A stretch of DNA of 64,000 bases from Escherichia coli O127:H6 str. E2348/69 (GTDB lineage Bacteria > Pseudomonadota > Gammaproteobacteria > Enterobacterales > Enterobacteriaceae), in NCBI RefSeq assembly GCF_000026545.1, contig NC_011601.1, one strand, 5' to 3'. Made by a program: the position numbers and the translations under genes. This document shows, piece after piece, positions 36,952 through 37,785 of this stretch (position 1 is the first letter of the stretch; the number at the start of each line of letters is the position of its first letter). The notes under the pieces were generated by a model. It was not told where the DNA came from. It saw nothing but the letters and a program-made list of their open reading frames with translations, and did no database searches.

Positions 36952-37785
36952 ATGCAAACAGAAGCTGAAGTCTTAACCGATCACAACGAGATAATTCGCT
37001 CGACCAATATTGAGCGTATCGTCACAGGACGTGATAGCGCACTGAAGCTGATAGCGACGCTAATCCAAAAACTGGATGATATCTCCAGTCTGACATCCAG
37101 TATTGGCGGTGATGTGGCTGGAACCTGGGGAATGCGTAATGGATATGCCTTTGACTGCTGGCTGATGCAACCAACCGACAAAGCGATGTCGGCGATCACC
37201 CGCAATATCGATCGCAGCATCTGGCGCGATCTCATGCTGAAGTCCGGGATGTTGACTCTGATGGATGCCGAAGCCCGCAGTCAGTGGGCAAAGAACCTGG
37301 AGGAGGGCGATCTCCCGGCGATTAGCGAAGCCAACATCCTGAGTACCTTTGAACAACTCCACCACAATAAGCATGATGTTTTCGAACGTGGGATTATCAA
37401 TGTATTTAAGGGATTGAGCTGGGATTACAAAACCAATAATCCCTGTTATTTCGGTAAGAAGATTATCGTTAACAATCTGGTGAAGCATGACCGATGGGGT
37501 TACAGCCTGCACTGGGGCTGGCGGCGAGATCAGCTTGCCGATCTGGAACGGATGTTCTATCTGCTGGATGGGAAGGCCATTCCCGATAACCGGCATGATG
37601 TTGCGATTCGGTTTATGGACTTCGTTAGTGCTCACCCGCATGAGCAGGTATTTAATGACGATTTATTTGTCATCCGCTATTACCAGAAAGGCAGTGGACA
37701 CATCACATTCAAGCGACTGGATCTGGTGGATAAGATGAATGACATTGTGGCGAAGCACTATCCGTCAGCGTTATCAGCAAAATGA
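36952..37785 (+). CDS. Hypothetical protein divergent from hsdM
   Basis: 277-aa ORF with RBS-like sequence upstream; no recognised catalytic motif. Confidence 0.45.
   Translation: MQTEAEVLTDHNEIIRSTNIERIVTGRDSALKLIATLIQKLDDISSLTSSIGGDVAGTWGMRNGYAFDCWLMQPTDKAMSAITRNIDRSIWRDLMLKSGMLTLMDAEARSQWAKNLEEGDLPAISEANILSTFEQLHHNKHDVFERGIINVFKGLSWDYKTNNPCYFGKKIIVNNLVKHDRWGYSLHWGWRRDQLADLERMFYLLDGKAIPDNRHDVAIRFMDFVSAHPHEQVFNDDLFVIRYYQKGSGHITFKRLDLVDKMNDIVAKHYPSALSAK

Follow-up and report, generated by a model that had tools for sequence, protein, structure and literature searches.

In Escherichia coli O127:H6 str. E2348/69 (contig NC_011601.1), a stretch of 64,000 nucleotides, hereafter the window, carries on its plus strand, at 36952-37785, a gene for a 277-aa protein of the DUF4942 family, which stands divergent from hsdM of a type IC restriction-modification (R-M) operon. 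We consider that it is probably an establishment-type gene of mobile elements with no functional tie to the hsd or mcrBC genes that surround it; within this reading the protein may be a binder or an enzyme, and may serve in anti-restriction or in another establishment role. The gene, its DUF4942 family annotation and the enrichment of the family in plasmid leading regions are already known. What is added here is, on the one hand, the history of the locus, with a breakpoint at 36845, a variable cargo slot and an incidental adjacency to the R-M operon, and, on the other hand, the description of fused relatives whose TaqI-like methyltransferase core has no recognition domain, the absence of such a core beside the standalone copies, and the lack of any fold neighbour in the Protein Data Bank (PDB).

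From the letters alone, the sequence-only reading had described a well-formed open reading frame (ORF) with no recognisable motif, divergent from hsdM and inside a defence cluster. The location stands, since hsdRMS, an McrBC-like pair and an SBD-HNH endonuclease flank the gene. The frame, which opens with an ATG at 36952 and closes with a TGA at 37783-37785, is a real gene: its product is 100% identical to the annotated RefSeq protein WP_001192737.1 of E2348/69, “DUF4942 domain-containing protein” (the record compared, NZ_LT827011.1 4715069-4779068, has 100% identity to the window), its ratio of non-synonymous to synonymous substitution rates (dN/dS) against four other E. coli alleles is 0.09-0.125, third codon positions hold most of the allele differences (56/85 and 90/133), and thousands of homologues exist. 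The gene is under purifying selection.

The motif, in turn, had been overlooked. Pfam PF13708 (DUF4942) matches aa 83-271 over profile positions 1-189 of 190, with 231.1 bits and E=1.1e-68, and this whole-domain score, compared with a gathering threshold of 25 bits, places the protein in the family, for which the synonyms YdiA, YgfB and L0010 are in use (PMC11541004 Supplementary Table 1; PMC6980539). In an alignment of 89 DUF4942 sequences (A1), W91, D197, H250 and N263 are invariant, and near-invariance extends to some 20 others that are polar or aromatic; the window protein has all four residues together with the LSWDYKTN, DDLxR and HxTFKR motifs. The N-terminal helix, which lies outside the Pfam domain, is also conserved in the family, with S17 and R27 nearly invariant, and the length of the protein falls within the typical range of about 265-295 aa. 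Of the 1.84 billion representatives of 50%-identity clusters that were scanned in full with HMMER, 2,136 are relatives at E<=1e-3, and homologues of 80-91% identity occur in Escherichia, Klebsiella, Citrobacter, Salmonella, Enterobacter, Kluyvera and Yersinia. An NCBIfam scan of the window protein gave zero matches. Three PHROG profiles matched, two of them of unknown function and the third a “DNA methyltransferase” profile of 548 positions that aligns with the window protein at positions 85-287 only. At the protein level the window copy shows no difference from its family; what sets it apart is that the usual upstream partners (CbtA and others) are gone and that it is not on a transferable element.

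Beyond the window, a tblastn search found a DUF4942 homologue on 4,306 of 72,556 plasmids, which by mobility typing divide into 3,964 conjugative (92%), 172 mobilisable and 170 non-mobilisable ones. In a pOXA-48-like IncL/M plasmid and an IncK2/Z plasmid the gene lies in the leading region, i.e., the DNA that is first to enter the recipient, near mobA/relaxase and pointing to the transfer origin (oriT), as do the accompanying ssb, psiB, hok, ParB-like homologue of yfjB, JAB/RadC gene and antirestriction gene; ArdA and KlcA also share leading regions with the DUF4942 family. YfjB/HerB of the F plasmid was considered as a possible member and rejected, being a 652-aa ParB-like protein. In a published survey of leading regions (Samuel et al., 2024, Nature 635:186; PMC11541004, Supplementary Table 1), family #24, “Uncharacterized; DUF4942; Methyltransferase,” has 2,171 members, a false discovery rate p=0 and a median position of 1 from oriT on the T-strand-compatible strand, and family #76 is likewise DUF4942 (p=2e-100). 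Both belong to the same Pfam family as the window protein, and the plasmid homologues retrieved here are the first, or among the first, genes beside oriT and are oriented to it. The window copy differs from them in being chromosomal, in being 36-40% identical to the plasmid forms and in belonging to the island (L0010-type) branch; leading-region placement is thus a trait of the plasmid homologues and not of this copy. Furthermore, a metagenomic element with TrwC, TrwB and SSB carries a DUF4942 gene among small ORFs, and in a Burkholderia island DUF4942 occurs together with DUF932 and YqaJ. Position 1 from oriT is occupied, in thousands of resistance plasmids (pOXA-48-like IncL/M, the IncI complex and Klebsiella IncF among them), by a protein with no fold match, and the family constitutes a cheap and well-defined target for work on plasmid establishment and anti-restriction.

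The canonical order in tRNA-associated genomic islands is DUF932, Antirestrict (PF03230), RadC, DUF987, CbeA, CbtA and DUF4942, followed by DUF6088, ParE and a helix-turn-helix (HTH) gene; it is kept in eight out of eight distinct places of an 83%-identical homologue (P0069), with right-hand flanks that differ, and the intact CP4-type module was found in three E. coli loci (L004, L005 and L014) and in L030-L037. In a table for the pathogenicity island that bears the Shigella resistance locus (SRL PAI), the DUF4942 gene is equated with L0010 of the flank of the locus of enterocyte effacement (LEE) (PMC6980539). In the distal module of CP4-type islands cbtA/cbeA directly precede DUF4942, whereas in the window hsdM is found there instead. 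The blastn alignments with L004 and L005, both of the cbtA type, run from window positions 36845/36844 to 37789/37786; position 36845 corresponds to the base right after the cbtA stop codon in these loci, 107 bp before the DUF4942 ATG, and position 37789 lies 4 bp past the DUF4942 stop codon. Because homology to the module loci spans 36845-37789, E2348/69 retains, in the distal part of the leuX island, just the gene and its own leader, the upstream island module having been replaced by the type IC hsdRMS operon. The segment between the hsdM start and the leader has no blastn homology to the cbtA-type loci, and plasmid-borne hsdM copies lose homology to the window at about 36648.

Queries spanning the junctions were run in 5,426 complete E. 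coli genomes, with no correction for kinship among them. The hsdM-DUF4942 junction was present in 298 genomes and the cbtA-DUF4942 junction in 139, the DUF4942 gene itself, at >=80% coverage, being carried by about 430. In 1,619 genomes, with 703 of the places on plasmids, the 5′ end of this hsdM was found without DUF4942, as against a junction in 298 only. All four hsdM-type copies that were inspected (the window, L002, L003 and L006) occupy the same leuX-nanS/nanM/nanC/fim position, which points, from these four loci, to one inherited arrangement. The adjacency of the DUF4942 gene to hsdM is recombinant in origin and incidental, and the gene, as a stranded piece of mobile-element backbone, marks a site of rearrangement of the leuX island and of defence-cargo swapping. 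As regards the alleles at this position, those of the window, L002 and L003 show a synonymous divergence (dS) of 0.21-0.26 with dN/dS of about 0.12; the dS, taken with no core-gene baseline, seems high for alleles of one E. coli locus and suggests that recombination often replaces the allele at leuX.

Natural disruptions by insertion sequences (IS) argue against dependence between the DUF4942 gene and hsdRMS or mcrBC in either direction. In strain RM7190 (L006) an IS3 splits the DUF4942 gene and both hsdRMS and mcrBC are intact; in ETEC4089 (L038) an IS66 truncation leaves 33 codons of the gene, with mcrBC intact and hsdRMS absent; in F5505-C1 (L003) hsdS is cut short by an IS1 and an annotated hsdR is lacking, and hsdM and the DUF4942 gene remain. 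The IS remodelling maps to 8001-9398 of L006, 8465-9098 of L038 and 7339-8142 of L003. Moreover, the slot right downstream of the gene is variable: it holds McrBC in the window and, elsewhere, CopG/RelE with an HTH gene, DUF6088/AbiEii, or DUF6088 with ParE and an HTH gene, and it looks like an exchange hotspot for defence and toxin-antitoxin cargo at the distal end of the island. Past this slot, the SBD-HNH (ScoMcrA-like) endonuclease follows at the leuX locus (window, L002-L004, L006 and L038) as well as in L035 and L037; in L014 only the HNH gene is kept, before nanS. For the DUF4942 gene, hsdM is a neighbour and McrBC is cargo of the slot that follows it; neither is a functional partner.

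In a minority of relatives (440-570 aa), from phages and mobile elements, the C-terminal part is a class I methyltransferase that shows FFPTP, EPSAGxG and MNPPF motifs (MTS/N6_Mtase domains), a TaqI/BseCI-like N6-adenine core with no target-recognition domain of its own. Among them are gp22 of Pseudomonas phage phiPSA1 and gp39 of Aeromonas phage vB_AsaM-56, both annotated as DNA methyltransferases, and the proteins P0223, P0198 and P0258; the phage set includes PHROG 6263, and in temperate phages the fusion genes are located in early or nin-like regions. The standalone and fused forms are interleaved, as P0223 is 44-47% identical to several standalone DUF4942 proteins vs 41-44% to other fusions. 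The window protein shares with these orphan N6-adenine DNA methyltransferases the N-terminal DUF4942 domain (23-44% identity) and ends where their linker begins. It contains neither the S-adenosylmethionine-binding motif I ((D/E)PxxGxG) nor motif IV ((D/N)PP(F/Y/W)), and has no methyltransferase Pfam match, so that standalone DUF4942 is predicted to be unable to methylate. In a model of a fusion, linker residues 263-274 are disordered and the predicted template modelling score (pTM) is 0.61, and for this reason no interface between DUF4942 and the methyltransferase can be claimed. A split-gene arrangement, in which a standalone DUF4942 would act with a neighbouring TaqI-like core, was also considered and rejected, since the standalone methyltransferase homologues are not beside DUF4942; neither the window nor the surroundings of the standalone DUF4942 loci fetched encode such a core.

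Two side observations concern these relatives. The proteins P0298-P0352 (alignment A2) are standalone homologues of the fused methyltransferase core, 255-265 aa long; their conserved N-terminal “GGxW...HxF” region recurs as an insert in the fusions of 530-570 aa and makes up a small domain that has no annotation. In L025 (1-7807), a DUF4942-methyltransferase fusion lies beside DpdA, and the genes divergent from the two encode a TerB_N/TerB_C protein, an ATPase similar to BrxC/BrxD and two helicases (DEAD and SNF2), which taken together appear to be a candidate for a defence system of several genes.

In the mechanism that we propose, the DUF4942 protein would act as an early establishment factor of mobile elements, possibly in anti-restriction, and the domain would be an autonomous, non-catalytic module for binding or targeting, with W91, D197, H250 and N263 in a conserved polar pocket. 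In the fused relatives it would bring the methyltransferase core, through the flexible linker, either to incoming DNA or to some conserved target, be it DNA or a host component, a targeting role that is suggested by the lack of a target-recognition domain in the fused core; the standalone form would presumably perform the binding step alone. The AlphaFold2 model of the window protein is confident (predicted local distance difference test, pLDDT, 89.7; pTM 0.81; built on alignment A1) and consists of a long N-terminal helix (20-49), a helical bundle (75-156) and an alpha/beta region, whose strands lie at 163-186 and 233-253 and whose helices lie at 190-227 and 256-269; H250 and N263 are placed on an element formed by a beta-hairpin and a helix. 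The PDB, searched by sequence and by profile, held no meaningful match (ribokinase, E=0.23; an uncharacterised protein, E=1.2), and the structural search that the sequence-only reading had proposed, run with Foldseek against the PDB, found no fold match (best E 0.17); scattered hits of low probability to TBP, the N-terminal domain of RNase HIII and Dcp1 were rejected as noise.

Several points weigh against the reading proposed here. Within the 64 kb of the window there is no relaxase, type IV secretion system, oriT or plasmid context, and, because purifying selection nevertheless acts on the gene, its chromosomal role may differ from one in transfer. The count of 298 E. coli genomes with the gene beside hsdM, the chromosomal position having been checked in four loci, is to be set on the same side. 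All 2,171 members of family #24 are “NA” against anti-restriction sequences and structures, with no anti-CRISPR match either (PMC11541004), and leading-region genes are not all induced on entry (PMC12672017). The window protein matched 0 PADLOC-DB families at E<=0.1, and hence no defence-system model; its charge is near-neutral (34 K/R vs 37 D/E, net about -3). The many invariant polar residues fit a conserved target or ligand, or catalysis, better than a variable target-recognition domain. Finally, no experiment on the family was found in the literature that mentions DUF4942.

Among the alternatives, a direct anti-restriction protein, which would bind host restriction enzymes and inhibit them, or alleviate restriction, as do ArdA, KlcA/ArdB, Ocr or Ral/Lar and which, kept beside hsdRMS, could modulate that system, appears unlikely. 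The sequence-only reading had reasoned from position that the gene might be a controller, an anti-restriction protein or a further defence component. Of these, the controller and the defence component fall, given that homologues are widespread without R-M, both on the plasmids and in the CbeA/CbtA module, which is the very outcome that the sequence-only reading had named as refuting its idea; anti-restriction stays plausible for another reason, namely that ArdA/KlcA, ssb and psiB accompany the family in leading regions and that phages have it fused to orphan DNA methyltransferases, a known anti-restriction strategy. The PF03230 antirestriction gene, which DUF4942 follows in the island module, speaks in the same sense. 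ArdA (PF07275), ArdB/KlcA (PF03230) and Ocr do share the genomic company of DUF4942, in leading regions and in the island module, but the window protein resembles no known anti-restriction protein in sequence or structure, with neither an ArdA or Antirestrict Pfam match, nor a PDB fold match, nor a PADLOC match, and its net charge shows that it is not an acidic DNA mimic.

An enzymatic function, in which conserved D, H, N, R, K and Y residues would form an active site whose substrate, while the element becomes established, is DNA, nucleotides or a protein of the host, is likewise improbable in our estimation. It would account for the four invariant and some 20 nearly invariant polar residues across sequences of about 30% identity and for the location of H250 and N263, and the interleaved similarity of standalone and fused forms suggests an activity of the domain itself; against it, no PDB sequence gives a profile match. 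A more ambitious extension is doubtful, namely that DUF4942 is a new-fold module, whose gene on thousands of enterobacterial conjugative plasmids is first, or among the first, into the recipient, which constitutes an unrecognised establishment or anti-restriction factor and whose leuX copy, under strong purifying selection although its island partners are gone, was co-opted by the host. As part of this extension, the leuX copy may modulate the neighbouring type I R-M system, for restriction alleviation or self-protection; if it were true, DUF4942 might, for instance, recognise incoming DNA or a conserved target of the host and, in its fused forms, recruit a promiscuous adenine methyltransferase.

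That the protein is a C-protein-like controller or an additional subunit of the type IC R-M system beside it is very improbable, and largely refuted. Divergence from hsdM over a shared intergenic region and recurrence of the junction in 298 genomes would favour it, the position beside an R-M operon being the only trait in common with R-M controller proteins. These are small XRE-type HTH proteins, co-oriented upstream of the genes they control and preceding the R gene, whereas the DUF4942 protein, at 277 aa, is larger, has no HTH or other regulator domain in Pfam and is encoded divergently from the M gene. In addition, hsdM is far more widespread than the junction, homology with hsd-free loci begins 107 bp before the ATG, hsdRMS is intact where IS3 splits the DUF4942 gene, which is dispensable for keeping the R-M genes, and the family is overwhelmingly without R-M neighbours. 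An accessory role in the McrBC-like system, for which the same strand and the closeness kept in L002, L003 and L006 would speak, is also highly improbable and largely refuted, as mcrBC is intact next to a 33-codon or IS3-split DUF4942 gene, the slot is filled elsewhere by unrelated toxin-antitoxin or Abi cargo, and the other DUF4942 loci inspected (plasmid, island and metagenomic) have no McrBC neighbour. A false lead is in this way removed, the gene being no hidden regulator or subunit of type I R-M or of McrBC.

The features that surround the gene are collected in Table 1.

Table 1. Features around the DUF4942 gene, in window coordinates.
Feature	Position	Strand	Basis or remark
Type IC (EcoR124-like) hsdRMS: hsdR/hsdS/hsdM	30628-36645		Pfam
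hsdM, type IC R-M	35089-36645	-	Pfam N6_Mtase + HsdM_N
Junction segment, hsdM start to retained DUF4942 module	36646-36844	.	specific to hsdM-type arrangement
Conserved leader moving with the DUF4942 gene	36845-36951	+	107 bp; left end of retained island-backbone module
Sigma-70-like promoter candidate, TTTACC-16-GATAAT	36878-36905	+	consensus scan; putative
McrB-like + McrC-like genes	38147-41508	+	Pfam AAA_5 and McrBC
SBD-HNH phosphorothioate-dependent endonuclease	41571-42500		Pfam HNH_2; RefSeq: phosphorothioated-DNA-binding restriction endonuclease

Upstream, the DUF4942 gene is separated from hsdM by a 306-bp intergenic region. The ribosome-binding site of its own that had been attributed to the gene amounts to GGATGAAAGATT, which is purine-rich but weak and precedes the ATG. 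The consensus scan found 5 promoter-like sites vs 4.1 expected, so that the promoter candidate does not stand above chance; the (G/C)ATAAT hexamer of the leader, which resembles a -10 element, is kept across loci (alignment A3). In the same alignment, window positions 36900-36942 show this hexamer and, behind it, a small hairpin plus a T-run, conserved in the leader, with a stem that is GC-rich and stronger in the cbtA-type loci; the hairpin and T-run could be the terminator of an upstream cbtA operon or a leader attenuator. An Rfam search around the gene returned nothing but a chance miRNA match (E=0.6).

On the other side, the McrBC-like pair lies on the same strand, 361 bp downstream. Its McrB-like protein (38147-40201) has 684 aa, of which the strongest Pfam match, AAA_5, spans only aa 433-522; the N-terminal ~220 residues, with no Pfam match, are presumably a reader of DNA modification. 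At the far left of the cluster, leuX (tRNA-Leu CAA) lies at 15258-15342 and is separated from hsdR by an element of about 15 kb (15343-30300) that holds a tyrosine integrase (29028-30239, minus strand), a serine recombinase, a DEAD/DEAH helicase, two HNH/endonuclease genes and some 15 hypothetical ORFs of small size. This may be either a satellite or an integrative element similar to the phage-inducible chromosomal islands (PICI-like). In strain PG20180057, which is without this element, hsdR directly abuts leuX.
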